Origin: a virus
Taxonomy: Duplodnaviria > Caudoviricetes
Strand: one strand, 5' to 3'
IMG/VR virus record: IMGVR_UViG_3300005281_000077
Location: 1 to 27,904 of that record
Length of the DNA: 27,904 bases
Positions within the stretch are counted from its first letter, which is position 1; each line of letters begins with the position of its first letter. The notes below the pieces were generated by a model that saw only the letters and a program-made list of their open reading frames with translations, was not told where the DNA came from and made no database searches. This document shows positions 1 to 11,861 of this stretch, piece by piece. The translations under genes were made by a program, and so were the position numbers.

Positions 1-1
1 G

Positions 2-379
2 TCGGGGCAGACTGTCGCTGGCTTTTTGAAATCCCTTATGGGCATTAAGCATGTAGCCCAGGGAACACAGACAGCCTACCCGCGACGGTATGTCGAAGAA
101 CGATGGGATATCTATTTGGACAATGCCAAAGAGCTTCCCGATGACGACGTACTCAGCGCGGCCAAAGCGTCCTTATTTAATATCCTATTCCCGCGCGATT
201 CAGAAACGGCTGTCGTGCGAACGCATACTCAGTTTGAGTGTCCGTTTACCGGCAAGCGGTATGGTTCGATGGATAAATTGGTTCGCGCCGCGATCCCTCA
301 TTTGATCGACAGCGCGAAGCGCGACAAAGAGCGTAAAGCCGAGATGGCAGCGCTGAGGGAGCGTAATCTCGCGAAATAA
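2..379 (+). CDS. hypothetical phage protein, 5'-truncated by window edge
   Basis: The frame of ORF 26..379 is open from position 2 (SGQTVAGFLKSLMG...) and stops at TAA 377-379; no family recognised. Confidence 0.6.
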   Translation, partial: SGQTVAGFLKSLMGIKHVAQGTQTAYPRRYVEERWDIYLDNAKELPDDDVLSAAKASLFNILFPRDSETAVVRTHTQFECPFTGKRYGSMDKLVRAAIPHLIDSAKRDKERKAEMAALRERNLAK

Positions 380-468
380 GCCCGCCCAGCCATACGGCCG
401 AGTAGAGTTCCGGCGTCGCTTTGACACGATGTCCGATCGAAATTTTGTCAATGTTCGTATTTTGTTCC

Positions 469-506
469 CCTATACATATGTATAGGTTTGTGATATATTT
501 ATATCA
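469..506 (+). promoter_or_regulatory. sigma-A-like promoter P1 with two overlapping palindromic operators
   Basis: TATACA(471-476)-N17-TATATT(494-499) with a TG extension; perfect palindrome CCTATACATATGTATAGG (469-486) and TGATATA-TT-TATATCA (491-506). Confidence 0.6.
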
Positions 507-532
507 GAGATCAGGACAAGGGAGCGATTAAG

Positions 533-958
533 ATGAACATCGTCCAAATGTACGAGCTGGTAAAAGCGATCTACGAAAAACATAAGGATGAATATTACTA
601 CATCGGTCTTCGGTTTGAAAACAAAGACCGGGAAATCGGCGAGGTGTGCGAGAACAGCCGCCATAACGCCGACCGCGAGGACGAACGTGACTTCCCGGCC
701 TATGGAACGCCTGAATACGAGGAAATGGAAATCCTCGACGGCACGAGCGCCTGGAACATGGACCCGAGCATCTACGGTAAACAGTACCATCCCGGAATGT
801 ACAGCTTGCGGGATATTAATCTCGAAAAGGATTGCCGGAGTTTCTTTTTGGCCGACCATTGCTACGTGATCGCCGGCCACCGCGAATGCCGCCACGATGA
901 CCCCGATGAAAACGAGATCGTCATTAAGGACGCCGTGGTTATCGCTAAAATTTTCTAA
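533..958 (+). CDS. acidic hypothetical protein, anti-defence candidate with possible ART-like R-S-E motifs
   Basis: SD AAGGGAG upstream; 141 aa, D/E-rich; motifs YIGLR, DGTSAW and DENEIVI; first gene after P1. Confidence 0.75.
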   Translation: MNIVQMYELVKAIYEKHKDEYYYIGLRFENKDREIGEVCENSRHNADREDERDFPAYGTPEYEEMEILDGTSAWNMDPSIYGKQYHPGMYSLRDINLEKDCRSFFLADHCYVIAGHRECRHDDPDENEIVIKDAVVIAKIF

Positions 959-1004
959 TCATTGGTGAGGTCGACCTCCCCTTTTCTGGAAATGGAGGAA
1001 TGTT

Positions 1005-1310
1005 ATGAGTGACATTTGGATAGGAACCGGCATTTGGGAGGGATGGCGCATTACAACCGATCACCCCGCCAGTTCCTACGGTCAGCCGGTACTGGTTGAT
1101 CCCGACGGTAACGCCTACGGACCTGGCGACATACGCAAACGCATCTATCAGGCTGATCTTGCTCGGCAGCTAGGCATAACTCGAGGTGCGATCCAAGATA
1201 GGGTTAAGCGAGGCACATTGCCTCCATTTGATGGGTACGACGAGGGCGGCCGGGGATACTGGCACATAGGGACGATCAAACATTTGCTCAACGCTGACAA
1301 AGAGCAGTGA
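1005..1310 (+). CDS. HTH DNA-binding protein (Aca-like) with N-terminal accessory domain
   Basis: SD GGAGG; C-terminal IYQADLARQLGITRGAIQDRVKRGTLP is HTH-like (AlpA/MerR style); last gene of unit 1. Confidence 0.75.
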   Translation: MSDIWIGTGIWEGWRITTDHPASSYGQPVLVDPDGNAYGPGDIRKRIYQADLARQLGITRGAIQDRVKRGTLPPFDGYDEGGRGYWHIGTIKHLLNADKEQ

Positions 1311-1328
1311 GGTTAACCCTCCTGCTCT
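1301..1328 (+). terminator. hairpin ending unit 1 (weak U tract)
   Basis: AGAGCAG-T-GAGG-TTAAC-CCTC-CTGCTCT inverted repeat over the stop codon. Confidence 0.4.
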
Positions 1329-1357
1329 TCTGCTCTCCTATGTAAAGTTTGTTCCGA

Positions 1358-1390
1358 CCTATTTACATATAATTATTTATATGTTATTAT
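1358..1390 (+). promoter_or_regulatory. sigma-A promoter P2 with inverted-repeat operator (copy 1 of a 33-bp exact repeat)
   Basis: CCTATTTACATATAATTATTTATATGTTATTAT: TTTACA-N17-TATTAT with a TG extension; ACATATAA-N4-TTATATGT palindrome; identical to 2671-2703. Confidence 0.8.
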
Positions 1391-1423
1391 ATAGACAAAG
1401 GGTATCAAAGGAGCGGATCGAAG

Positions 1424-1786
1424 ATGAAAAACGTAATGACGCGGGCATGGGAAATCGCTAAGGCGGCAGCCAGCATTCACGGCGGCAAGGCATCGGAATA
1501 CATCGCCGACGCGCTGCGCATGGCATGGGCGGAGTCCCGTCGTCCAAAATGCGTAACGATTGAGCTGCGCCAGCCGAACCGCAAATCCAAAACGTGGGTC
1601 GCCGCGATCGTCGGCACGCATCCGGTTTACAAATTCGAGCGCAAGTTCGTCAACCCGATCGCATACGGCGAAACGACGTGGGAACTGGCCGAAGGTGTAT
1701 ACGAGGTTTGCGAAAACGGCAATCGTTACTTTATCCGGGTCGCTGGTGGCGACTACCGCCGGATCGACGCGAAGGACGTGGCTTGA
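1424..1786 (+). CDS. hypothetical phage protein
   Basis: SD AAAGGAG; 120 aa; N-terminal MTRAWEIAK...LRMAW helical motif; first gene after P2. Confidence 0.75.
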   Translation: MKNVMTRAWEIAKAAASIHGGKASEYIADALRMAWAESRRPKCVTIELRQPNRKSKTWVAAIVGTHPVYKFERKFVNPIAYGETTWELAEGVYEVCENGNRYFIRVAGGDYRRIDAKDVA

Positions 1787-2451
1787 TGCGCGGACAGCAG
1801 ATCGAGGTGGGTCAAAAGTTTACCCGGCTAACGGCGAAGGAAAAACTCGCGGAGAAGTGGCACAACGAGGAAGCCTGGCTCTGCGAGTGTGAATGCGGCG
1901 AAATGACGATCGCCACCAAGGGACAGCTTTTGTCCGGACGAAAGAAATCTTGCGGCTGCCTGCGCAAAAAGACGCCGGCGAACGCGCTTGACCTGGCAGG
2001 TAAGATCGTCAATGGCATCAAGGTAATCGAGCGTGCTGGCCGTACAGCCAGAGACAACGCCGTTTGGCTTTGCGAATGCAAGTGCGGCGAAAGATTTCTG
2101 GCGGCTGGCACACAACTTCGGCGCGGAGAAATCGTCTCATGTGGATGCGAACGACCAGCACAAGCGGCTAATGCCCGCAACGTGCTGATGATAGAAAAAT
2201 CCATTGATGGCGTCGCGGTTCCGCTGCTCACCAAAAAGGTGCGATCTGACAGCGGAACAGGTATCAAAGGCGTCCACCGGCGCGTGCGAAAAGGCAAGGA
2301 ATATTTTGAGGCGTATATCTCTGTCAAAGGCAAGAGGATATGGGCACCGCCGAGGACAAACTTGGCCGAAGCGATCGCGGATCGGAAGAGGCTGGAGCAA
2401 GAATATCATAAGCCGTATATCGATCAACTGGAGGGACAAGACGATGGATAA
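1786..2451 (+). CDS. Cys-rich repeat / AP2-domain DNA-binding protein
   Basis: ATG at 1786 overlaps the upstream TGA; two W-L-C-E-C-x-CG...SCGC repeats followed by an AP2-like SGTGIKGV...AYISVKGK...A..RKRLE domain; no HNH motif seen. Confidence 0.75.
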   Translation: MRGQQIEVGQKFTRLTAKEKLAEKWHNEEAWLCECECGEMTIATKGQLLSGRKKSCGCLRKKTPANALDLAGKIVNGIKVIERAGRTARDNAVWLCECKCGERFLAAGTQLRRGEIVSCGCERPAQAANARNVLMIEKSIDGVAVPLLTKKVRSDSGTGIKGVHRRVRKGKEYFEAYISVKGKRIWAPPRTNLAEAIADRKRLEQEYHKPYIDQLEGQDDG

Positions 2452-2656
2452 AGAGAAAATCAGACGGTGGATACAAGACAACCTGGTAATGCAGGACGAA
2501 GCTCGGCGGATAACCGGACAATCGGTGTCTGGATTTAACCAGTCTGTCCAAACGGGACGAATCATCCCGTTTGTGGAATTCGGAGATGCGCGCAAAACGC
2601 GCCTTTATCTCCGATCCGATCTGGAGGAGTACGCGAAAAACAAAAGAGTCCGTTAA
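2444..2656 (+). CDS. small HTH protein (HTH_17/excisionase-like; Aca-like regulator)
   Basis: SD GGAGGG and ATG at 2444; MDKEKIRRWIQDNLVMQDEARRITGQSVSGFNQSVQTGRIIP...RLYLRSDLEEY, 70 aa. Confidence 0.75.
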   Translation: MDKEKIRRWIQDNLVMQDEARRITGQSVSGFNQSVQTGRIIPFVEFGDARKTRLYLRSDLEEYAKNKRVR

Positions 2657-2670
2657 TTTTTTTGCCTTAC

Positions 2671-2703
2671 CCTATTTACATATAATTATTTATATGTTAT
2701 TAT
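2671..2703 (+). promoter_or_regulatory. sigma-A promoter P3 with the same operator (copy 2 of the 33-bp repeat)
   Basis: Exact copy of 1358-1390. Confidence 0.8.
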
Positions 2704-2755
2704 TAAATCACAGCAGGGGACGACATACAAAATTAAATCAAAGGAGAGGTTGAAA

Positions 2756-2920
2756 ATGGCAAAAATCTACTACGAGGACATCCTGGTCGGAGAGGTGGTC
2801 ACAAACCGCAGCTTGACGGTGGATGAAGCGTTGGAGGTAATCGGATTTGACGAGCAAGCGTTTATCGCAGAGCACGGCTTCGACGAAATCGACTACAACG
2901 ATTTTAAGCTTGTGTACTGA
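2756..2920 (+). CDS. small very acidic protein (54 aa), Acr/DNA-mimic candidate; absent from the ORF track
   Basis: SD AAAGGAGAGG; MAKIYYEDILVGEVVTNRSLTVDEALEVIGFDEQAFIAEHGFDEIDYNDFKLVY; 13 D/E versus 3 K/R. Confidence 0.75.
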   Translation: MAKIYYEDILVGEVVTNRSLTVDEALEVIGFDEQAFIAEHGFDEIDYNDFKLVY

Positions 2921-2948
2921 GAGCGGAGGGGCTCCGGCCTCTCTCTCC

Positions 2949-3005
2949 CCCGCCTGATGATGGCCGGATGGGAACCGACCGAAACGTCCACCCGAGCGTC
3001 GCGGG
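2949..3005 (+). ncRNA. type I hammerhead ribozyme (one extra U after A9)
   Basis: Stem I CCCGC(2949-53)/GCGGG(3001-05); core CTGATGA(2954-60); stem II GGCCGG/CCGACC; GAAA(2981-84); stem III ACG/CGT; GTC triplet with predicted cleavage after 3000. Confidence 0.8.
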
Positions 3006-3033
3006 ATACCCGCCACGAGTTGAAAACCGCATA

Positions 3034-3073
3034 CCGCATAAGACCTCACCTTCGGGGAGGCAGCGGAAAGGAG
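3034..3073 (+). promoter_or_regulatory. conserved RBS-adjacent RNA hairpin motif, copy 1
   Basis: CCGC-ATAAGA-CCTC-A-CC-TTCG-GG-GAGG-CA-GCGG-AAAGGAG; homologous to 3635-3676. Confidence 0.65.
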
Positions 3074-3081
3074 AATGAACC

Positions 3082-3624
3082 ATGAAACTCTCTCAATTGC
3101 TTTCCACAAAAAAAGTTATCGCTTCTGGATTCGCGGCCATCGCTGGCCTGGGGGGCCACTCCAAAGGCACGGAAGAGGTTGTCCTGTCGTCGCTGGCTCC
3201 GTCCATCTTGGCGGAGCAAGGCGTGACGGAATACTATGCGCTGGAGCTTCCGCGCGGGACGGTGTTTAACACGCCGGAGGAGATTATCGCAGCCGATCCG
3301 GACGTGCGGCGCTACACGATCCAGTCGGTTGACAACGTGAGTGACCTGGACGTGGTGATTGTCTCCCGCCACGCAGGCACAGTAGCGCTCCTGCAAGACC
3401 GCTATCCGGGCGCTCAGGTACTCGACTCCGTGACGCCGGACCAAATCGCCGGCAAACACGTCGTCGGCACGCTCCCGCCGCATCTTATTACGGCAGCCGG
3501 AGCATATACAGCCGTTACGATTCGCGGGTTTGACTACGCCAAAGACGGGGACTTGGCGGGCCAGGAGTTGGCGGCGCGGATCGTCATCGCTGACAAGCCG
3601 CTCCGGGTCGTGGAGATTAACTAA
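3082..3624 (+). CDS. Csx16-like (VVA1548 family) putative ring nuclease with tandem-duplicated domain
   Basis: The C-terminal half has VIVSRHAGTV...VVGTLPPHL, matching the Csx16 SRHxG and VIGTLPxxL signatures; the N-terminal half resembles a degenerate copy. Confidence 0.7.
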   Translation: MKLSQLLSTKKVIASGFAAIAGLGGHSKGTEEVVLSSLAPSILAEQGVTEYYALELPRGTVFNTPEEIIAADPDVRRYTIQSVDNVSDLDVVIVSRHAGTVALLQDRYPGAQVLDSVTPDQIAGKHVVGTLPPHLITAAGAYTAVTIRGFDYAKDGDLAGQELAARIVIADKPLRVVEIN

Positions 3625-3634
3625 TCATAGCGAT

Positions 3635-3676
3635 GCGCATAAGTCCTCACCTAAGCGGGAGGCCGCGCGAAAGGAG
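3635..3676 (+). promoter_or_regulatory. conserved RBS-adjacent RNA hairpin motif, copy 2
   Basis: GCGC-ATAAGT-CCTC-A-CC-TAAGC-GG-GAGG-CC-GCGC-G-AAAGGAG; compensatory change in the outer stem versus copy 1. Confidence 0.65.
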
Positions 3677-3684
3677 TAGATATA

Positions 3685-4413
3685 ATGTTTAACATCGATT
3701 TTGTGTATGATTCGGCCAATCTGCCGAGTCAAACGGGCAAGGAAGGCATCCGGGCAGTCCTCAATTATCTCGACACCACGACGGGACAAATCAAGTCGAT
3801 TACGGGCAGGATTGGTTACGGAAGATATACCGCCGGTTTCAGTCGGGATGGAGGATTTTCCTCTAAGTCATATGGATTATCTATGGCGCAGGAGGGTATC
3901 CTGCTCAGGTATTTTAACAACAGCAACAACGGGAGCTGGACCTGGTTTATCCCAGACAATCTCTCCGAGATAGAGGGCGTTCTCGTTTTTGCTTTTACAG
4001 CACATGGCAGGTCCATCGACTCGTATGTCCAAAGTATTGACTACGGCTTGGTGCTAAAAGTCAACTTGAAGGACTATGGCGAGCGTCATCCGTTAAATTT
4101 GATTTATGACTCAATCAAATTTGATCAGTATCGACCCGTGTTTAATCTCTTTGGAGATTATTTGGCTGTCCTTTTGCTGTCGCTTTTGGCCGAGTATAAG
4201 GACGCATTAGCGTATACCTTTACTACCGGGTTATTAGTAGGCAAGACTTTGGGGTCTGCCCTGTATGATATTGCGTCTCGTAGACACTCGGCTTTTTTAG
4301 ATGCGATGTTGGCCGGAGATATCAAAGTCGATCCAGCCCAACTTTTGAGGGGGTCGAAGTACCTCGGGCGGGATCTGTATCCGCAATATTATTCGGCTAC
4401 GCCCACCCGATAA
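3685..4413 (+). CDS. hypothetical protein
   Basis: SD AAAGGAG 8 nt upstream; 242 aa; no family recognised. Confidence 0.75.
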   Translation: MFNIDFVYDSANLPSQTGKEGIRAVLNYLDTTTGQIKSITGRIGYGRYTAGFSRDGGFSSKSYGLSMAQEGILLRYFNNSNNGSWTWFIPDNLSEIEGVLVFAFTAHGRSIDSYVQSIDYGLVLKVNLKDYGERHPLNLIYDSIKFDQYRPVFNLFGDYLAVLLLSLLAEYKDALAYTFTTGLLVGKTLGSALYDIASRRHSAFLDAMLAGDIKVDPAQLLRGSKYLGRDLYPQYYSATPTR

Positions 4414-4454
4414 GGCTGATGGGTAACCTAGCAACTACGTTGAGTTGTCCGCAC

Positions 4455-4537
4455 AAATGACAAGAGCCCCCTTGCGGGGGCTTGTCGTTTGGGTAAAAGG
4501 TTGTTTTAATCAACGCCTCGCTCGTGGCGGGCGACAT
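4455..4537 (-). ncRNA. solitary type I-C CRISPR-repeat-like small RNA (Racr/crRNA-mimic candidate)
   Basis: Minus strand 4535-4503 reads GTCGCCCGCCACGAGCGAGGCGTTGATTAAAAC: GT + 7-bp stem + 5-nt loop + 11-nt tail similar to TGGATTGAAAC; it has its own promoter and a 3' hairpin. Confidence 0.6.
4459..4490. terminator. strong hairpin, probable bidirectional terminator
   Basis: GACAA-GA-GCCCCC-TTGC-GGGGGC-TTGTC between the convergent unit 3 and the minus-strand sRNA; U tracts are weak. Confidence 0.55.
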
Positions 4538-4543
4538 ACTTTA

Positions 4544-4572
4544 AATATATATTCTTTTAAAAAAATTGTCAA
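4544..4572 (-). promoter_or_regulatory. near-consensus sigma-A promoter for the repeat-like sRNA
   Basis: TTGACA(4572-4567)-N17-TATATT(4549-4544); predicted +1 near 4537, 2 nt before the repeat. Confidence 0.75.
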
Positions 4573-4712
4573 CGGATTCCAAGCAGATCGATCAAAACCG
4601 ATTATGCGACCTCCCCTTCCCTCTTATGCAAACATTTACCGTCACAATTCAAGCGTTCAGAATGCTAAAATCGGTATATCAATTTTAGATATACGGACGG
4701 TGTACACTCCCC

Positions 4713-5564
4713 ATGTTTATTGCTCCAATGCTGGCTGAAAAACGCGAAAAGCCTTTCGATGATGACCGTTACATATTCGAACCGAAAATCGACGGCCATC
4801 GTCTTATTCTGTCCATGCAGAACGGCGTCGTTCGGCTCTACACGCGCCACGGAAACGAGGTCACGCGCCAGTACCCGGAGTTGCATAACGTGCCGATCGA
4901 GGACGGCTCTGACGTTGTTCTGGACGGCGAGGTGGCGGTTGTTAATCCGGAGACGGGCGCAATCGAGTTTGAGGGCATTATGGAGAGGTTTCGTCTGAAA
5001 AAGCCCTTGAGCATTCGCGAGGCGTCTGTCCGTCAGCCGGTTCATTATTTTGTCTTCGATATTCTGCGGTATAAAGGTGAAGACGTCCGCTCGTGGCCGC
5101 TCACGGAGCGTAAGACGCTACTGAACGAGGTTTTGGAGGATAATCGGTACTACAGCCGCACGCTTGCTGTAGACGGCGCGGGAATGGCGCTCTTTGAGGC
5201 GATCCGGGAAAAGGAGCTTGAGGGGATCGTTGCAAAGCGGAAGGACAGTCCGTATGTCAGCCGGCGCGATGCAAACTGGGTTAAAATCATCAATTACAAA
5301 TATGCTACCGTCCGAATCGCGGGGTACAGAAAAAATCAGTTTGGCTGGCTTGCTCAACATAATGGCCGCGCTGTGGGGATCATTGAACTGGCGGTGCCGG
5401 CTGCACACAGGCAGGCGTTTTACGGTGTTGCAAAGACGATCATAACCGGTGAGGATCGGGACTTCGTTTATGTGCAGCCGAGCATTGAGGCGGTTGTGCG
5501 GTTCCGGAATTGGACCCGGGCCGGGATGTTGCGGGCGCCGGAGTTTGTGCGGTTTGTGGTGTAA
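4713..5564 (+). CDS. ATP-dependent DNA ligase (LigD ligase-domain / SPbeta LigB-like)
   Basis: Motif I EPKIDGHR, VLDGEV, YFVFDIL, LEGIVAKRKDSPY and WVKI, plus a C-terminal OB fold ending GMLRAPEF. Confidence 0.92.
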   Translation: MFIAPMLAEKREKPFDDDRYIFEPKIDGHRLILSMQNGVVRLYTRHGNEVTRQYPELHNVPIEDGSDVVLDGEVAVVNPETGAIEFEGIMERFRLKKPLSIREASVRQPVHYFVFDILRYKGEDVRSWPLTERKTLLNEVLEDNRYYSRTLAVDGAGMALFEAIREKELEGIVAKRKDSPYVSRRDANWVKIINYKYATVRIAGYRKNQFGWLAQHNGRAVGIIELAVPAAHRQAFYGVAKTIITGEDRDFVYVQPSIEAVVRFRNWTRAGMLRAPEFVRFVV

Positions 5565-5662
5565 AAAAAGCAGTGAAAAAAAAGTCTCTGTTTCTTCGTT
5601 ATAAGAATCGTTATACTGATTGTAGCATTCGGTGGGGAGGAGGACAGTAGGTAAGATATAAC

Positions 5663-5692
5663 AAAAAAAGGCGGATGAGGCTCTCCGCCTTT
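5663..5692 (-). terminator. intrinsic terminator of the TA operon (possibly bidirectional)
   Basis: AAAGGCGGA-TGAGGCTC-TCCGCCTTT with an A7 run giving a U tract on the minus strand. Confidence 0.75.
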
Positions 5693-5705
5693 ACTGCTCA
5701 GAATT

Positions 5706-6140
5706 TTAATGAGTTATTCTTCTTTCTTTCAATAAATGCGGATTCCTTGATCTAATATCTTGTGCACTGATTCTTTGTTTTAAAATTTCATATGTGTTGC
5801 TATAAAGGGAATATTTTGAATGGATTATCGATAACTGCACTGGATCCATTGTTCGATTCCCGCATAATACGCTTAACTCCAACTCTGAAAAATATTCAAA
5901 TTCATAAAGAGCGTCAAGTTTAACAAATGAATCTCTTTTAAAAGGAGGAGAATATTTTAAAATTCGTTCATTGGAAGGCAAAGCAAGTTTATGCTCTTTT
6001 CCTTTTATTGACGATACGTTTAAAGCACGGATAAACTTATCGGAGGTTTCAATTACTAAAAATGTGCGGGGTTCTGAACACTCCGTTCCGTCTGCATAGA
6101 TTGCTTTTAGCAGCAATCCGTTACCAGCAGTGATTGGCAT
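5706..6140 (-). CDS. putative PemK/MazF-like toxin (PanT)
   Basis: Coupled to the Panacea gene (TAATG overlap); EPRTFLVI...ALNVSS...DSFVKLDALYEF resembles PemK RPxLVV..PITS..DSxVxxDQI. Confidence 0.55.
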   Translation of the reverse strand: MPITAGNGLLLKAIYADGTECSEPRTFLVIETSDKFIRALNVSSIKGKEHKLALPSNERILKYSPPFKRDSFVKLDALYEFEYFSELELSVLCGNRTMDPVQLSIIHSKYSLYSNTYEILKQRISAQDIRSRNPHLLKERRITH

Positions 6141-6796
6141 TAGAAAATCACTAAGCCAGCCGTTTCGTCTTTATAAATTGTATAAGAAGAATCTTCCCCG
6201 CTAAAAGATTCTAATATAGTCAATAAGTTGCTGTCGAGTTCAATTTCATTTGGGTCATAATAAAATTTCACATTATTTATTTCAATAAAATTGTCATTCA
6301 TTAAGCCATCCTCATAAGCTTTAATTGTCTCTTTAATGAGGTCAACTTCATTTTTCCGCAACTGATCTATCGTGATATAAGCATTTTCTTTCCACGAATA
6401 TCCACCACTAAGTGATCTACCGTATGATTCACGCCATGAAACATGTTCATGATTGATATCAGATAGCTCTGACGCAGACAATTGTCCGAAAATTTCCTCG
6501 ACAGTTTGGAGAGTGTCAAGTTGTTCGCTTGTAAGGTCAATTTTTTGAGAAAGCGCTCTGATTACATAATTTTGAAAATCGTGATGGTAAGGTTGTCTAA
6601 CAGTTTCAACTACAGACCCGTGTCTAAACGCATAAATCGTATCGTCGAATAATGGCTCATCATATTTTGCGAGATGAACTAATTGGGAGAAATATAACAA
6701 CTTTTGCAATTTCATATTTCCATCGAATGTATTTCTGGGTGTATCGTAATTGTTTTTTATAAACCAATAGGCGAATGGTTGGGCACTTCGGTACAT
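6140..6796 (-). CDS. Panacea/SocA (DUF4065) antitoxin
   Basis: NMKLQKLLYFSQ...PLFDDTIYAFRHGSVV...LSASELSDINHEHVSW signature; SD AAGGAGG. Confidence 0.85.
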   Translation of the reverse strand: MYRSAQPFAYWFIKNNYDTPRNTFDGNMKLQKLLYFSQLVHLAKYDEPLFDDTIYAFRHGSVVETVRQPYHHDFQNYVIRALSQKIDLTSEQLDTLQTVEEIFGQLSASELSDINHEHVSWRESYGRSLSGGYSWKENAYITIDQLRKNEVDLIKETIKAYEDGLMNDNFIEINNVKFYYDPNEIELDSNLLTILESFSGEDSSYTIYKDETAGLVIF

Positions 6797-6855
6797 AACA
6801 CTTCCCTCCTTTCACCAATAATAACGCAATTTTACCAGTAGTCAATATCAAACTG

Positions 6856-6869
6856 AGAACACATGTTCC
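6856..6869. promoter_or_regulatory. LexA (Cheo/SOS) box
   Basis: AGAACACATGTTCC fits the Firmicutes GAAC-RNRY-GTTC pattern; ~60 bp upstream of the Panacea start. Confidence 0.6.
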
Positions 6870-6953
6870 TAATTTTGCAAATAATTTAAACCATTAATCG
6901 CAGCTTATTCTCCTTATTTCTGATTTGACAATAAATTAGTGAAGTTGCATGGC

Positions 6954-6982
6954 AAAAAGCCCGAGAGCCGAAGCCCCCGGGC
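6954..6982 (-). terminator. intrinsic terminator after the endolysin
   Basis: Minus strand GCCCGGGGGC-TTCG-GCTCTCGGGC-TTTTT. Confidence 0.8.
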
Positions 6983-6988
6983 CGATCA

Positions 6989-7885
6989 TTAGCGATAAAT
7001 AAACACCTTTTTGACCTCTCCGTTCCAGCTCACTCGCGCTCCCAGCAACTCAGCAGCCGCCCGTACGCCGACGTAAGTCACCCCGTCGATGATCTCGAAC
7101 ACGTCCACGACCTTGCCGTCCACGTATGGCAGCTTGGACTCATTATCCCAGTGGACCACCTTGCCGAGCGCCTCCCCGAGCTGCCGCAACGGTAAATAGA
7201 CGTGACCGTCAATCGCTCGACCGTAGCCTGCCAGCTTGTCGTTGACGACGACCTTGATGGTATCCTTTTCGTTGGTCTGCGGTGCGGCCGCCTGTGCCGG
7301 GTTCGTGTTCCACCAGCCTTCGCCGCCGTATGATTCGTTCAAGTCGACCGTCGCGTCGGCCAAGCTGACGCCGTTTTGATGCTGCCAGATGTTTGCGCGC
7401 GCCGACTTCCTGCCCCGGCTCCAGGCGTAGGTCTGCCAGAAATGCTTGGCGGCGCCGCGCCGGGCCATTTCCTCAATGACGGCATACGAGCCGTAAACGC
7501 CGACCCGATAGCCGGGGATCGCGGACGACGCGGCGCGCAGGTATGCCTCAATCGCGTCGTAGTCCTTGGGCTGCGCGTCGTAGTCCACGGCAAAATAGAT
7601 GGCCGTACCAAGAGGTTGTCCGATAGCGATAGCCTCTTTGAGTGCTTCGGAACCGTCTACGATCCCGGCCGCGCCGCCCCCCGCCGGCCGATTGGCGGTC
7701 GTCTCGAACACGCTGACAATCTGCATCCCGGCGGCCGTGATGGCCTCCGCCTCGCCCCTCGTCAGCCGCTTCCAGGCATAGCGCTCCGGCACCAGGTAAC
7801 GCGCCGCGAAGGTGTATCCGGCTGCGGCGATCGCTTTGGCCGTACTGGCGGTAAGCGGAAGCGCGCAATCGATGCCTTTAGTCAT
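6989..7885 (-). CDS. endolysin: DUF1906 (Rv2525c-like) glycoside hydrolase plus C-terminal stalk-like cell-binding repeats
   Basis: GIDC...FAARYL..KRLT..EA..I..IYFAVDYD..GVYGS..WQTYAWS; C-terminal YLPLRQLGEALG and YVGVRAAAELLG repeats; located in the lysis module. Confidence 0.85.
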   Translation of the reverse strand: MTKGIDCALPLTASTAKAIAAAGYTFAARYLVPERYAWKRLTRGEAEAITAAGMQIVSVFETTANRPAGGGAAGIVDGSEALKEAIAIGQPLGTAIYFAVDYDAQPKDYDAIEAYLRAASSAIPGYRVGVYGSYAVIEEMARRGAAKHFWQTYAWSRGRKSARANIWQHQNGVSLADATVDLNESYGGEGWWNTNPAQAAAPQTNEKDTIKVVVNDKLAGYGRAIDGHVYLPLRQLGEALGKVVHWDNESKLPYVDGKVVDVFEIIDGVTYVGVRAAAELLGARVSWNGEVKKVFIYR

Positions 7886-8204
7886 TGGTCACATCCCCCT
7901 TTCCCTTCCCACTCCCCGGCGGGTTCAGCGCCTTGTTCTGCATCTGGCCGGCTGCCGCCGCGACCAAGAAGCCGTTCGCCAGCGCCAGCGCGTACACCCG
8001 CCAGTCGCCCCCGTCGGCGCCTACGGCAAGCTGCGCGGCCGTCAGGATGGCCGTCGCGATCACAACTGCATACAGGTCTGTCGGCAGCCATTTGGCAAAG
8101 CGGTCAACAAGCCCCTTCGTATACTGCACGATCAGGTACGTCAACAAAGAAGCTCCCCCCATCGCGGAGAGAGCTTCCCAAGTGAAGAGTTGTCCGGATT
8201 CCAT
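7878..8204 (-). CDS. putative holin
   Basis: 108 aa with about three hydrophobic segments, directly upstream of the endolysin. Confidence 0.7.
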   Translation of the reverse strand: MESGQLFTWEALSAMGGASLLTYLIVQYTKGLVDRFAKWLPTDLYAVVIATAILTAAQLAVGADGGDWRVYALALANGFLVAAAAGQMQNKALNPPGSGKGKGDVTND

Positions 8205-8205
8205 A

Positions 8206-8538
8206 TTATGATCCGACTCCTTTCCAAAGTAATGCGATTGCGCCGCCGATCCCGCCGGTGATGATGGCTGCTATGACGGTACGCCACAACCATTTGATGT
8301 CATCTTGCACACTCTTGATTTGCGAAACGGTCTCGTCTATTCGGTGATGTGCGCTCTTAGCCCGCTGATCGGCATCCCTCGCAATGTCGTCGGACCGGTC
8401 TAGTTTTTCGACGAGTCGGTTAACGTTGGCCGTAAGCTCCGTTGTGGTGCGAACGGTGGCTTCCTGTAGGGCTTCGAGTCGCCCAAGCCTTCCTTCGATT
8501 TTTCCGAGCGCTTGCAGCTCTGTTGCGTCCATGCTCAA
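8206..8538 (-). CDS. XhlA-like holin-associated membrane protein
   Basis: Coiled coil, AKSAHHRID motif, then KWLWRT and a C-terminal TM helix; start may be ATG 8532. Confidence 0.75.
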   Translation of the reverse strand: MSMDATELQALGKIEGRLGRLEALQEATVRTTTELTANVNRLVEKLDRSDDIARDADQRAKSAHHRIDETVSQIKSVQDDIKWLWRTVIAAIITGGIGGAIALLWKGVGS

Positions 8539-8685
8539 GCTCTCACCCCCATTAAGAATGCTTTAAAAGTCCTACAAGGCGGAAAAGATCGGGACCAATC
8601 ACGGCTTCGATTTACCAAGTGCCTGTAAATCTGCTCCGCTATATTCTTAATGTCTTCTCCGATCCTAATTTCCACACCGCCAAAA

Positions 8686-8799
8686 CTATCCGGTCGCCTT
8701 TGTGGCGGACGCATTTTTTAATTCTTCCCGAACGATCTCTCTAATCATTTCTGTCGTGTCGGGATCCAACTTGACTACACCTCTAATCGATTCCGCCAT
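8686..8799 (-). CDS. small hypothetical protein (37 aa, possibly a frameshifted remnant)
   Basis: SD GGAGGTG; MAESIRGVVKLDPDTTEMIREIVREELKNASATKATG. Confidence 0.4.
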   Translation of the reverse strand: MAESIRGVVKLDPDTTEMIREIVREELKNASATKATG

Positions 8800-8825
8800 C
8801 CCGTTCACACCTCCATAACATAAAC

Positions 8826-8852
8826 AAGGTAATTTCTAGCATTTTGTCGAAT
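8826..8852 (+). promoter_or_regulatory. sigma-H-like promoter of a moron gene
   Basis: AAGGTAAT-N12-GTCGAAT resembles RNAGGAWWW-N11/12-RNNGAAT. Confidence 0.35.
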
Positions 8853-8882
8853 GTTCATCTCTGGGCAAATCCGTACGAAGGA

Positions 8883-9128
8883 GTGATTAATCTGTCGAGA
8901 ATTAACGTAGAGGAAATAGCGTCAAAAATTGCGCCGAAATTGGAAGATCAATACTTATCTGACTTAAAAAAGCTTGTTGTTGATGCCACCCATGAAGCAA
9001 ATGACATCGTCCACAAAGAATCATTGCTTCTCTCTGGTGTAGCAACGAGCCTGAAAAATCATATTGAACGCTTTACCGTCGAACTTGTTCAGGCTGTTGT
9101 TGATCGGCTGGAATCCGAGAAGAATTGA
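8883..9128 (+). CDS. hypothetical moron protein
   Basis: SD AAGGAG at 8878-8883; start uncertain (GTG 8883 or CTG 8892); ~80 aa, helical, AT-rich. Confidence 0.55.
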   Translation: MINLSRINVEEIASKIAPKLEDQYLSDLKKLVVDATHEANDIVHKESLLLSGVATSLKNHIERFTVELVQAVVDRLESEKN

Positions 9129-9285
9129 GGACCAGATTATAAACCTCTTTGGCAATGGCGAGCGCTTGCCCACCGTTCGCCTTCTTTTCCTCGGCCAATT
9201 CCTTTTCGATCCGCTCAACACGTTCTTTAAGCGATGCGATTTCATCGACAATAATTTTGAACGCGCTTTTTTCTTGGTATTCCAT
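9073..9285 (-). CDS. small coiled-coil hypothetical protein
   Basis: SD GGGGTGA; 70 aa; its 3' end overlaps the convergent gene. Confidence 0.5.
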   Translation of the reverse strand: MEYQEKSAFKIIVDEIASLKERVERIEKELAEEKKANGGQALAIAKEVYNLVLNSSRIPADQQQPEQVRR

Positions 9286-9301
9286 CGTTCTTTCACCCCC
9301 A

Positions 9302-9332
9302 ACACAAAAACCCGAAACCTGCCGGCTCGGGT
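9302..9332 (-). terminator. intrinsic terminator between the tail and lysis modules
   Basis: Minus strand ACCCGAGCC-GGCA-GGTTTCGGGT-TTTTGTGTT. Confidence 0.6.
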
Positions 9333-9372
9333 CGTGGTATAATATAGTAAAAACATCAAGGAGATGATCCCC

Positions 9373-9918
9373 TTGAAACAGTTGCGGACCATCATCGTCA
9401 GCATGCTAGCCGGCGCGCTGTTGGCGACCGCCGGAACGACTTTCGGCGCGGAGGCATACAAGAAGATTTCCGCCACGCTGCGGCCGGACCTTGCCGTTAA
9501 GGTGGACGGCGAGAAGGTAAAATTGCAAAACGCACCATTAACATATAACGGCACCACCTATGTACCACTGCGCGAAGCAGGGCAGATTTTAGGAGCAACG
9601 GTTGGCTACAATGCCGGGACCATTACGATTGATTCAAAGGAGGCAAGCAAAGTGAACGAAACGACGACGGAAACGGGTTGGATTACATTGCAAGAACTGA
9701 GTAAGCATGTAGATTCGATAACCCTTGGAGGAAATGATCTCGCCCTTACCATTAAAAAGGGAAACACAACAATAGAGGTCGAGCAATTTAAGCGTCCAGC
9801 TCAAGGAAGTGAGGTAAGTTTCCAGGTAACAGGTGGTGGTGAGTTAAGAGCTAAGTTTCTACAATACGAAACCCAACTCTCCGTTGAAGACCTCACCAAC
9901 TTAGGGGTAAGTTTTTAA
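9373..9918 (+). CDS. secreted stalk-domain (copper amine oxidase N-terminal-like) moron protein
   Basis: Extended -10 TGGTATAAT (9335-9343); SD AAGGAG; signal peptide; PLTYNGTTYVPLREAGQILGATVGY motif; TTG 9373 is better spaced than ATG 9364. Confidence 0.8.
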   Translation: MKQLRTIIVSMLAGALLATAGTTFGAEAYKKISATLRPDLAVKVDGEKVKLQNAPLTYNGTTYVPLREAGQILGATVGYNAGTITIDSKEASKVNETTTETGWITLQELSKHVDSITLGGNDLALTIKKGNTTIEVEQFKRPAQGSEVSFQVTGGGELRAKFLQYETQLSVEDLTNLGVSF

Positions 9919-11861
9919 AAATTCCCGCCACCTTGACTACTGATGAATATTTGCTCGACAACTGACGCAACAACTCGCCCCAAACTATTCGGGGCGATTT
10001 TTATTTCTGCCCATCGTCCCCGCTGGATTTTTCCAGACCCGTCCTTCGCTAAATACGGAATGATATCGATTTCCTGCGCACTCGTCCCCAATCCCGTAAC
10101 GGCATTCCCGTCTACCGTCACGGTAACCGCCGTCGGTGTCGGGCCTTCGTAAATGCCGAATTCAATCCCATGTGTATGAGATGGTATTTGGTGTGTATGA
10201 TCCATACCGTGTGTATGTGGCATATCATGTGTATGTTCCATTTGATGTGTATGGTCCATTCCGTGGACGTGATCTGGAAGGGTAAATTCGTGGCGATGTC
10301 CTACTATTCCGTGTCTATGCTGACCGGACGCTGACCATGTTACTGCTCCACCGCCAACAGTTGCTAATTGCGTGCCATCCGGGATTCCGTGATTATGCAA
10401 ACCGGTCATTTCTGTTGCTTCCGGCGCCCCAAAATCGAAGTCCAGACGCCATATTTCATCCCCCGTTGATGTGTCTACCAATCCGCCTCCTGCAGCCGTT
10501 GTTGTTCTGCTACTCGGCCCCGACGTGGTTCTGCTGCTTGGCCCGGTCGTCGTGATGCTACTCGGCCCTGTTGTTGTGATACTGCTGGGACCGCTCGTGG
10601 TGGCCGGGGCTGACTCGATCGCCCGTTCATACGCTCTAAACGGCTGACACTCATAGGACAACATGACCTTGTTAATTCGCACCGCCTCTTGCGGAATCCA
10701 AAACCGCAGCACGGCCGGATGATCCGGATCGCAGTTGTCCGCGAAGTCATGGGTATTGATGTTGGTAGCTCCCTGTGCATAGACCTCGCTGATCCGCTGG
10801 CGGTTCGCCAGGTCCGCAATCGTGTCCGCGATATTAACAGACTTGTTTGCGATTTCAAGCTCCACGTCTCCCGGGGATCCCATCACATCCCGGCGACGCC
10901 GATTAACCACCCGAGCAACGATATCGATACCCATTTCCGAGTCTTGCACGCGGACCAGCGTGCCGACCCTGAACCGATCAATCGGGTCGTTTGTGATGGC
11001 ATAAAGCTCCGAGGCATCGACCGTATAGGTGACCTGTGGCACCTGCAGCTGTTCCAGCATGGATTGAGCGTATGCTTTCAGCGTCTCCGGGTTAGTAAAT
11101 CGCTGATCGACCAGGATGCGCGTGATGATCCCGTATTGCGCCTGCGTCGGTGCGTCCAGGTACGGCACGCCGCCGTTGACTTCGGCGATCGTGAGCTGGT
11201 TGACGCCCTCCCCATAACCCAGCGGGTAAATCCGCGTGCAGATTTGCGTCGGGTCTGTCATTTTGGTAATGCCTTGAAGGTTGACGCCATACCGGATACG
11301 CGCCTCTTCGCCCGCCGGCGGCACTACGAGGTTAAGCGTCCACGGGTAAGTGCTGGTGTCCCAGGTCCACATATATTCGTCCGTAAACGGCTTGGGAACG
11401 CTGAACAAAGCCCCAAGGAGCGACTCGTTTTCCCACGTGTATTCGAACTGCCTCGTGAAATCGACTCTCCCAATCCGCCAGCGCTGAACCGTTTGGCGTT
11501 GCAGGATATAGGACAGCACGTCGGCCGTGTAGGTCCCAAGGTTGCCTACCGTATGGAATTGGAACAGCACATCGTCCAGCAGCGTCCCCAGGACGTGCTC
11601 CAACTGGTAGGTAACGGTCTGTCCATCGCGGCTCCTTTCCATTGTGTTCGGGACGATCCGGAAGAGGTCAACCCGTTCGGCCCCGTCGTATAGCTCCACA
11701 AAATATAATGGCTTGCACTCGGCATTTTTCGGGTCGTTGGCCGGCAAGCTGAATTCCGCCCGCCAGAGGCTGTTCAGCGGTTGCTCGTAGCCGATCCCGA
11801 AGGCATTTTCAAGGTACGCAACCTTTCGCATATTAAGGTCGTAAACCGTCGTTACATTCAC
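9915..11861 (-). CDS. tail spike / Tal-like (prophage endopeptidase tail) protein with HxH needle
   Basis: SD GAGGTG and GTG at 11861; ICTRIYPLGYGEG motif; C-terminal TTxGPSS and HTHxM repeats. Confidence 0.85.
   Translation of the reverse strand: MNVTTVYDLNMRKVAYLENAFGIGYEQPLNSLWRAEFSLPANDPKNAECKPLYFVELYDGAERVDLFRIVPNTMERSRDGQTVTYQLEHVLGTLLDDVLFQFHTVGNLGTYTADVLSYILQRQTVQRWRIGRVDFTRQFEYTWENESLLGALFSVPKPFTDEYMWTWDTSTYPWTLNLVVPPAGEEARIRYGVNLQGITKMTDPTQICTRIYPLGYGEGVNQLTIAEVNGGVPYLDAPTQAQYGIITRILVDQRFTNPETLKAYAQSMLEQLQVPQVTYTVDASELYAITNDPIDRFRVGTLVRVQDSEMGIDIVARVVNRRRRDVMGSPGDVELEIANKSVNIADTIADLANRQRISEVYAQGATNINTHDFADNCDPDHPAVLRFWIPQEAVRINKVMLSYECQPFRAYERAIESAPATTSGPSSITTTGPSSITTTGPSSRTTSGPSSRTTTAAGGGLVDTSTGDEIWRLDFDFGAPEATEMTGLHNHGIPDGTQLATVGGGAVTWSASGQHRHGIVGHRHEFTLPDHVHGMDHTHQMEHTHDMPHTHGMDHTHQIPSHTHGIEFGIYEGPTPTAVTVTVDGNAVTGLGTSAQEIDIIPYLAKDGSGKIQRGRWAEIKIAPNSLGRVVASVVEQIFISSQGGGNF
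10170..10271 (-). repeat. 18-bp/6-aa HxHxMx tandem repeats
   Basis: HVHGMD HTHQME HTHDMP HTHGMD HTHQIPS HTH in the translation. Confidence 0.85.
10497..10601 (-). repeat. four 24-bp/8-aa TTxGPSS(I/R) tandem repeats
   Basis: TTSGPSSI TTTGPSSI TTTGPSSR TTSGPSSR in the translation. Confidence 0.85.

Follow-up and report, generated by a model that had tools for sequence, protein, structure and literature searches.

Cracrs, which are carried on phages and plasmids outside the cas locus, consist of a single repeat-like unit, a short pseudo-spacer and a terminator (10.1101/2024.10.29.618823), and the element described here is built in the same way. According to the available text of that preprint, the 219 predicted Cracrs take in type I-C candidates and Bacillota hosts, and those tested belong to types V-A, I-E and I-F. 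Cracrs are defined there by at least nine PAM-proximal matches to a cellular CreR/CreA guide, whereas our element reached six to eight at best in the sequences searched. Racrs, or solitary repeat units (PMC10651486), are lone intergenic phage repeats behind a promoter whose subtype is that of the system in the likely host family, and the element shares these properties. In the accessible part of PMC10651486, RacrIC1 is co-transcribed with acrIC5 and RacrIF1 acts by lacking the 5' handle; the element differs from the former in having its own promoter and terminator and from the latter in retaining an 11-nt handle and a conserved seed.

The cellular type I-C crlRNAs (Nezha, Gabija, CRISIS; 10.1101/2024.12.27.630466) likewise combine a hairpin and an 11-nt handle with a short guide and a 3' hairpin. 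In the available part of that source they lie directly before cas5c, have their target nearby and give products of 48-50 nt, whereas our element resides on mobile elements without cas genes, has a predicted product of 39-42 nt and has no target in cis. A viral mini-CRISPR array carries two repeats around a full-length spacer, in contrast to the one repeat and 21-nt linker found here. The element was not described in the literature searched, including the available parts of the PMC10651486 and PMC10120712 supplements, and the supplementary tables of the preprints may list it. Both mechanisms proposed in the initial annotation, a decoy and a promoter-repressing guide, are already published. By comparison with these systems the element may work as a Cracr does, at a probability a little under one half, or, less probably, as a Racr does.

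Setting and anatomy of the element

The DNA analysed, here called the window, is a 27.9-kb siphovirus fragment (27,904 nt) whose minus strand encodes terminase, portal, capsid, tail and lysis proteins; small accessory genes form a block at positions 500-6800. In agreement with the initial annotation no array or core cas gene was found anywhere in the window, nor was any Rfam family at gathering score. The 39 window proteins included no member of a cas family, save for a sub-threshold Csx16 match, and none matched a known Acr family. Named members of the phage protein clusters came from Paenibacillus sp. JMULE4 and a Cohnella MAG, so the host of the phage likely belongs to the Paenibacillaceae. 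The features considered are as follows.

4544..4572, minus strand: promoter of the sigma-70/sigma-A type, TTGACA-17-TATATT, with 11 of 12 consensus matches and a start predicted near 4537
4535-4503, minus strand: 33-nt repeat-like unit, apparently an altered single type I-C CRISPR repeat
4514..4535, minus strand: 5' part of the repeat mimic as folded, with GU, a 7-bp stem with one bulged A and a 5-nt loop
Between 4514 and 4513, minus strand: predicted Cas5c cut, after the available parts of PMC3973291 and PMC8524198
4503..4513, minus strand: 11-nt handle expected at the 5' end of the processed RNA, with two differences from the repeat of array L114
4482..4502, minus strand: 21-nt linker, the candidate guide or pseudo-spacer, whose last 5-10 nt pair with the terminator in the precursor
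4455..4481, minus strand: putative intrinsic terminator, a GC-rich hairpin (4481-4466) with a U-rich tail, terminator-like on both strands
3685..4413, plus strand: 242-aa gene, convergent on the element's terminator, replaced by another gene in sister phage G002 (L051)
3082..3624, plus strand: Csx16-like gene of 180 aa, candidate cA4 ring nuclease against type III CRISPR (PF09652, E 5e-5, below the curated cut-off)
2949..3005, plus strand: type I hammerhead-like motif in the early accessory operon, core CUGAUGA...GAAAC...GUC, three stems checked

The minus-strand promoter was located just before the repeat unit, as had been claimed, and is the best of 17 promoter-like sites at window positions 1-10000. 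Its -10 hexamer TATATT ends at 4544, 8 nt ahead of the repeat (8-24 nt across the five alleles described below), within the limit of 250 bp upstream that, in the accessible text, is used as a criterion for Racrs. The transcription start near 4537 was placed by spacing alone. The element is likely transcribed. A 789-nt contig of RNA run X5 has the sequence of the G002 allele and breaks off at L051:4003, a single base ahead of the predicted handle; a DNA contig of run X4 spans this position. The stop was not counted as evidence of expression: it comes from one study, the contigs carry neither strand nor ends, and the hairpin itself could cause it.

When folded alone, the repeat reproduced the proposed type I-C geometry: after GU come a 7-bp stem interrupted by the bulged A, a loop of 5 nt and a free tail of 11 nt (z -2.07; equalled by 5 of 200 shuffles). 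The whole element folds as two hairpins (z -3.93), and none of 200 shuffles folded as well. The likeness goes beyond chance, for a loose I-C pattern had no match in 200 simulated windows. Scored locally against 33 array repeats, the element reached 22, compared with at best 15 elsewhere in the window and 13-17 in eight simulations, a comparison biased toward the element since the array repeats had been collected by a pattern derived from it. The unit is single and intergenic, with no second copy or array in the window.

The linker of about 21 nt and the GC hairpin after it are both present as first described, with the correction that the 3' stem takes in the last 5-10 linker bases. The hairpin GCCCCC-GCAA-GGGGGC scores as terminator-like, and its five C-G pairs are invariant while the loop changes among the alleles; its stem reaching into the linker end, its U-rich tail and the different loop of the plasmid copy also argue for a terminator. 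Possibly it ends the convergent plus-strand transcript as well. The suggestion that this hairpin doubles as a degenerate second repeat stem was dropped, since it has no GU start and no handle and its loop is replaced in the plasmid copy. Four Rfam matches near the hairpin, at E 5.7-8.6, are at chance level.

The ATG at 4537, at the predicted transcription start, begins a 46-codon open frame, which could be read as a leaderless peptide gene. The ATG is present in two of the five alleles, single-base indels shift the frame, and the frame crosses the terminator; the coding reading, which we consider barely credible, was therefore rejected.

The convergent 242-aa protein matched no Pfam, PHROG or NCBIfam family, its Atlas matches were all below 0.9, and only five close homologues were found. 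Also in the post-lysis accessory region are genes for a Panacea-domain antitoxin, whose downstream partner varies, and for an ATP-dependent DNA ligase (window 5706-6796, minus strand, and 4713-5564, plus strand). An exact 33-bp direct repeat (window 1358-1390 and 2671-2703) contains a TTTACA-17-TATTAT promoter and drives two small-gene blocks. An inter-gene motif made of GCATAAG, a short hairpin and a ribosome-binding site is repeated at window 3036 and 3637 (plus strand) ahead of exchangeable accessory genes, and gene swaps at these points are visible in RNA and DNA contigs.

Alleles of the element and type I-C repeats of related hosts

Five alleles were identified, in the window phage, in its sister phages G001 and G002, in metagenome contig L136 and in plasmid pTHECO01 of Thermobacillus composti KWC4. 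The G001 allele was one of 39 loci in a 17-letter scan of viral contigs, the other 38 being unrelated, and the G002 allele was one of two loci in a pattern scan. The pattern scan of metagenomes gave 97 loci, six of them with the unit: the window's own copy, four further copies of the G001 or G002 alleles, and L136 as the new one. The pTHECO01 match (78%, E 5e-7, BLAST against 72,556 plasmids) stood far ahead of the other 42 records. Contig L159, with a similar tail and terminator but without the full repeat, was rejected as a carrier. The 26 short matches in INPHARED phages (E up to 10) included no homologue, and a scan of species genomes returned five loci, all unrelated, with a pattern unable to catch a plasmid-type allele and thus giving no proof of absence. 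The range of the element is narrow: two of 39 endolysin-anchored loci, those of the two known phages, contain it, although many of these loci extend for less than 1 kb in its direction. In L180 (96% identical) an integrase takes the place of the element.

Alignment of the five alleles revealed that invariant columns make up one of two positions in the 5' GU, all seven of the 5' stem, one of five in the loop, all eight of the 3' stem with its bulge, 10 of 11 in the handle, six of six at linker positions 1-6, five of ten at linker positions 7-16 and 20 of 32 in the terminator part. Positions 7 and 9 of the linker are among those that vary. The seven pairs of the repeat stem never vary, so covariation is absent, and the alleles are close kin. 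The initial annotation had looked to related prophages for conservation of repeat and promoter, and both were found to be kept: the repeat geometry recurs in all five alleles, as do TTGAC(A/G), the 17-nt spacer and a -10 with 4-5 of 6 matches, despite differing surroundings.

In G001 the downstream genes are the same as in the window, and homology extends only to the 5' edge of the repeat (4536), beyond which a different promoter sequence follows. G002 has its promoter in common with the window, together with a different downstream gene and one extra upstream gene; the gene just upstream of its promoter is presumably a small spore protein gene. The pTHECO01 copy sits behind a hicB gene, with no cas genes in the 20 kb around it.

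According to the available text of PMC8524198, Cas5c of B. halodurans recognises the stem base and the 3' overhang and ignores the loop and 5' overhang, and Cas5c of S. mutans cleaves a G23U variant at near wild-type level. The columns that vary among the alleles (loop, 5' overhang) are the parts that Cas5c reportedly ignores, so the allele pattern fits a type I-C repeat mimic. G23U is one of the two handle differences from the L114 repeat and occurs in two of the five alleles (window and G001). In the accessible part of PMC3973291 Cas5c cuts between G21 and U22, leaving an 11-nt handle.

A Cas-independent role was weighed against this pattern. The element might be a relic, either a bidirectional terminator made from a piece of a repeat or an antisense RNA against the convergent early operon, and the terminator-like hairpin on both strands (with an equally good plus-strand fold, z -4.02), the few and closely related alleles and the low count among endolysin-anchored loci are all consistent with it. 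We consider it improbable. Repeat and promoter are both kept though a terminator requires neither, and in comparison with the plasmid copy the repeat (27 of 33) is better preserved than the terminator part (17 of 26). As for an antisense role, the RNA would not overlap the convergent ORF, which is itself exchanged among carriers.

T. composti KWC4 is listed with type III-D, I-B and I-C systems and a 32-nt repeat in the available part of the PMC10536717 supplement, and that of PMC8482600 assigns the sequence of this repeat to type I-C, with TTC as its PAM. Its 14 stem bases are identical to those of the element, which adds one A, and aligned by eye it matches the window copy in 25 of 33 columns and the plasmid copy in 27 of 33. 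The 25-copy array of L114 has the same stem and matches in 28 of 33 columns, the best among the 33 array repeats; two Paenibacillus plasmid arrays match in only 22 of 34, and the bulged A is missing from every array repeat compared. As described in the accessible text, SRUFinder demands a match of at least 90% identity that covers at least 90% of a known repeat, and uses a database of 17,823 repeats; the element, compared with the 33 array repeats and that of T. composti, falls below this identity at 28 of 33 and 25 of 33 columns respectively.

A cellular element of the same build was found in Paenibacillus amylolyticus plasmid pY5S7-1 (L219:6453-6375, minus strand), where a shortened I-C repeat, a guide and a terminator lie between cas3 and cas5c. 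The guide has a TTC-flanked match of nine positions at 6541, 88 nt away, which one of 1000 shuffles reached. This is likely a self-regulating guide of the cell, and its build and match suggest that Paenibacillaceae-type I-C loci use such regulators. Together with the conservation in five alleles and the T. composti repeat match, it supports the original reading of the phage element as an I-C repeat mimic.

A contig from DNA run X4 departs from the G002 sequence at L051:4123 and passes into 24 letters of an I-C-type repeat, the adjacent bases being TTC; the contig is single, the length of its matching part is not given, and its repeat has a different stem. It suggests that an I-C array in the X4 community targets sister phage G002 at a TTC PAM. 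The X4 repeat pattern had no match in viral contigs. Given the different stem of the X4 repeat and the named relatives, a Cohnella MAG and Paenibacillus sp. JMULE4, T. composti is only a possible host of the phage.

Predicted mode of action and candidate targets of the linker

The element probably acts through type I-C proteins of the host. An RNA of about 85 nt would be transcribed from near 4537, and host Cas5c would cut it after 4514 so that the product carries the 11-nt handle. The product would measure about 39-42 nt, assuming 3' trimming within the hairpin loop of the kind that published I-C crlRNAs undergo. Loaded into Cascade, the processed RNA would rival real crRNAs, and its linker would likely hold Cascade at the promoter of a host cas or defence gene. 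The full sequence of events, a Cracr-like anti-CRISPR RNA with Cas5c cutting, Cascade loading, competition with crRNAs and repression of a host promoter, is put forward tentatively, as a model that falls somewhat short of an even chance.

Several observations argue for this guide model. The stem and handle are kept while the loop and 5' overhang are free to vary, and the unit persists while the upstream promoter sequence and the downstream gene are exchanged. The build is that of published I-C crlRNAs and Cracrs, T. composti has a listed I-C system with a stem-identical repeat, and the L219 element and the X4 contig point the same way. The six invariant bases after the handle also favour a guide, although the close kinship of the alleles means that this linker seed may have been conserved by hitchhiking with the handle. 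Counting against the guide model are the predicted product, which is shorter than the published 48-50 nt, the bulged A that the compared array repeats do not have, and the outcome of the target search, in which no site with at least nine PAM-proximal positions was found in the sequences searched.

In the window, G001 and G002 the best linker matches ran over six to eight positions; no target was found in 20 kb of pTHECO01, and five other Bacillales I-C loci gave one 8-position TTT site only. A TTC site at 2754-2745, over a ribosome-binding site, matches at seven positions in all three phages, with about one such site expected by chance by our estimate. No single target could pair along its full length with every allele, given the differences at linker positions 7 and 9.

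The same observations bear on a simpler possibility, in which the Cas5c-cut RNA is an anti-CRISPR of the Racr kind that merely soaks up Cas5c/Cas7c or the whole Cascade, the linker being a short scaffold. All the repeat evidence fits such a decoy equally well, and the variation at linker positions 7 and 9 favours either a decoy or host-specific targets. The lack of a linker target in the phage records, the 20 kb of pTHECO01 and the five Bacillales I-C loci, the strong, near-consensus promoter and the Csx16-like gene 0.8 kb away in two of the three phages are in keeping with it, and the available text of PMC10651486 offers RacrIC1 as a tested I-C precedent. A decoy would, however, leave unexplained why the six bases right after the handle are invariant, the plasmid copy included, and why the fixed short linker and terminator are the same as in the cellular regulator of L219; the repeat is also far more degenerate than the 90% identity demanded of catalogued solitary repeats. 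We rank a decoy acting alone second, not far behind the guide model. The two models overlap, since according to the accessible part of the Cracr preprint (10.1101/2024.10.29.618823) such RNAs also compete for Cas proteins.

The linker could also be the single guide of a mini-CRISPR directed against a rival phage or plasmid, and viral record G004 does contain a TTC-flanked 11-nt match to it. This match ends at 11 nt, lies inside a coding sequence of a record with 32% GC, and was rejected as a target: with at most one mismatch the linker pattern and the reversed-pattern control gave seven sites each, which is chance level. A linker of only 21 nt, the lack of a second repeat and a seed common to phage and plasmid also make a mini-CRISPR very improbable. 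A search with 1203 array spacers against the phage and plasmid records gave matches of only 14-18 nt.

Neighbouring motifs and significance

The Csx16-like protein has 73 homologues, most with PF09652 and some named Csx16, among them several in Paenibacillaceae and one in Bacillus phage Shbh1; no PDB sequence matched it. Its gene lies 0.8 kb from the element in the window, is present in G001 and is absent from G002, for which reason it was treated as context only. In the available text of PMC12409355, Csx16 degrades cA4 and is found in 2 of 28,114 phage genomes.

The motif at window 2949-3005, which we take to be hammerhead-like by its consensus, had no match to the Rfam hammerheads. In G001 and pTHECO01 a second copy lies on the other strand, immediately next to the element's -35, and in pTHECO01 it has GCC instead of GUC. 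Outside the window record the motif was located at L154:6242, at L156:9940 (minus strand) and at L200:9371 (minus strand). Hammerheads flanking prophage genes have already been described, as the accessible part of PMC3088659 records. In another prophage (L200:9249, minus strand) an I-C handle-like 14-mer immediately precedes a ribosome-binding site, with a hammerhead motif about 120 nt upstream of it, and a 2-kb metagenome contig (L126, near 874) holds an unrelated lone, shortened I-C-like repeat between a TTGACA promoter and a hairpin.

These features could conceivably belong together in a portable anti-defence module of temperate phages and a megaplasmid of thermophilic Paenibacillaceae. In this speculative scheme, to which we give little credence, a degenerate, bulged I-C repeat, followed by a 6-nt seed that is fixed and a tail that can be retuned, would direct Cascade to different host promoters and evade published repeat searches, a hammerhead would stand back to back with it in two carriers, and the phage would add a Csx16-like ring nuclease against type III.

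No new principle is indicated, the hijack trick having already been described. If the guide model is true, a type I-C example from Bacillota would be added to a class which, in the available text, has been tested for V-A, I-E and I-F. With alleles available from nature and a carrier in culture (T. composti KWC4), the choice between guide and decoy is directly testable. The element further suggests that viral repeat mimics can fall well below the 90% identity filter, so that catalogues may undercount them.
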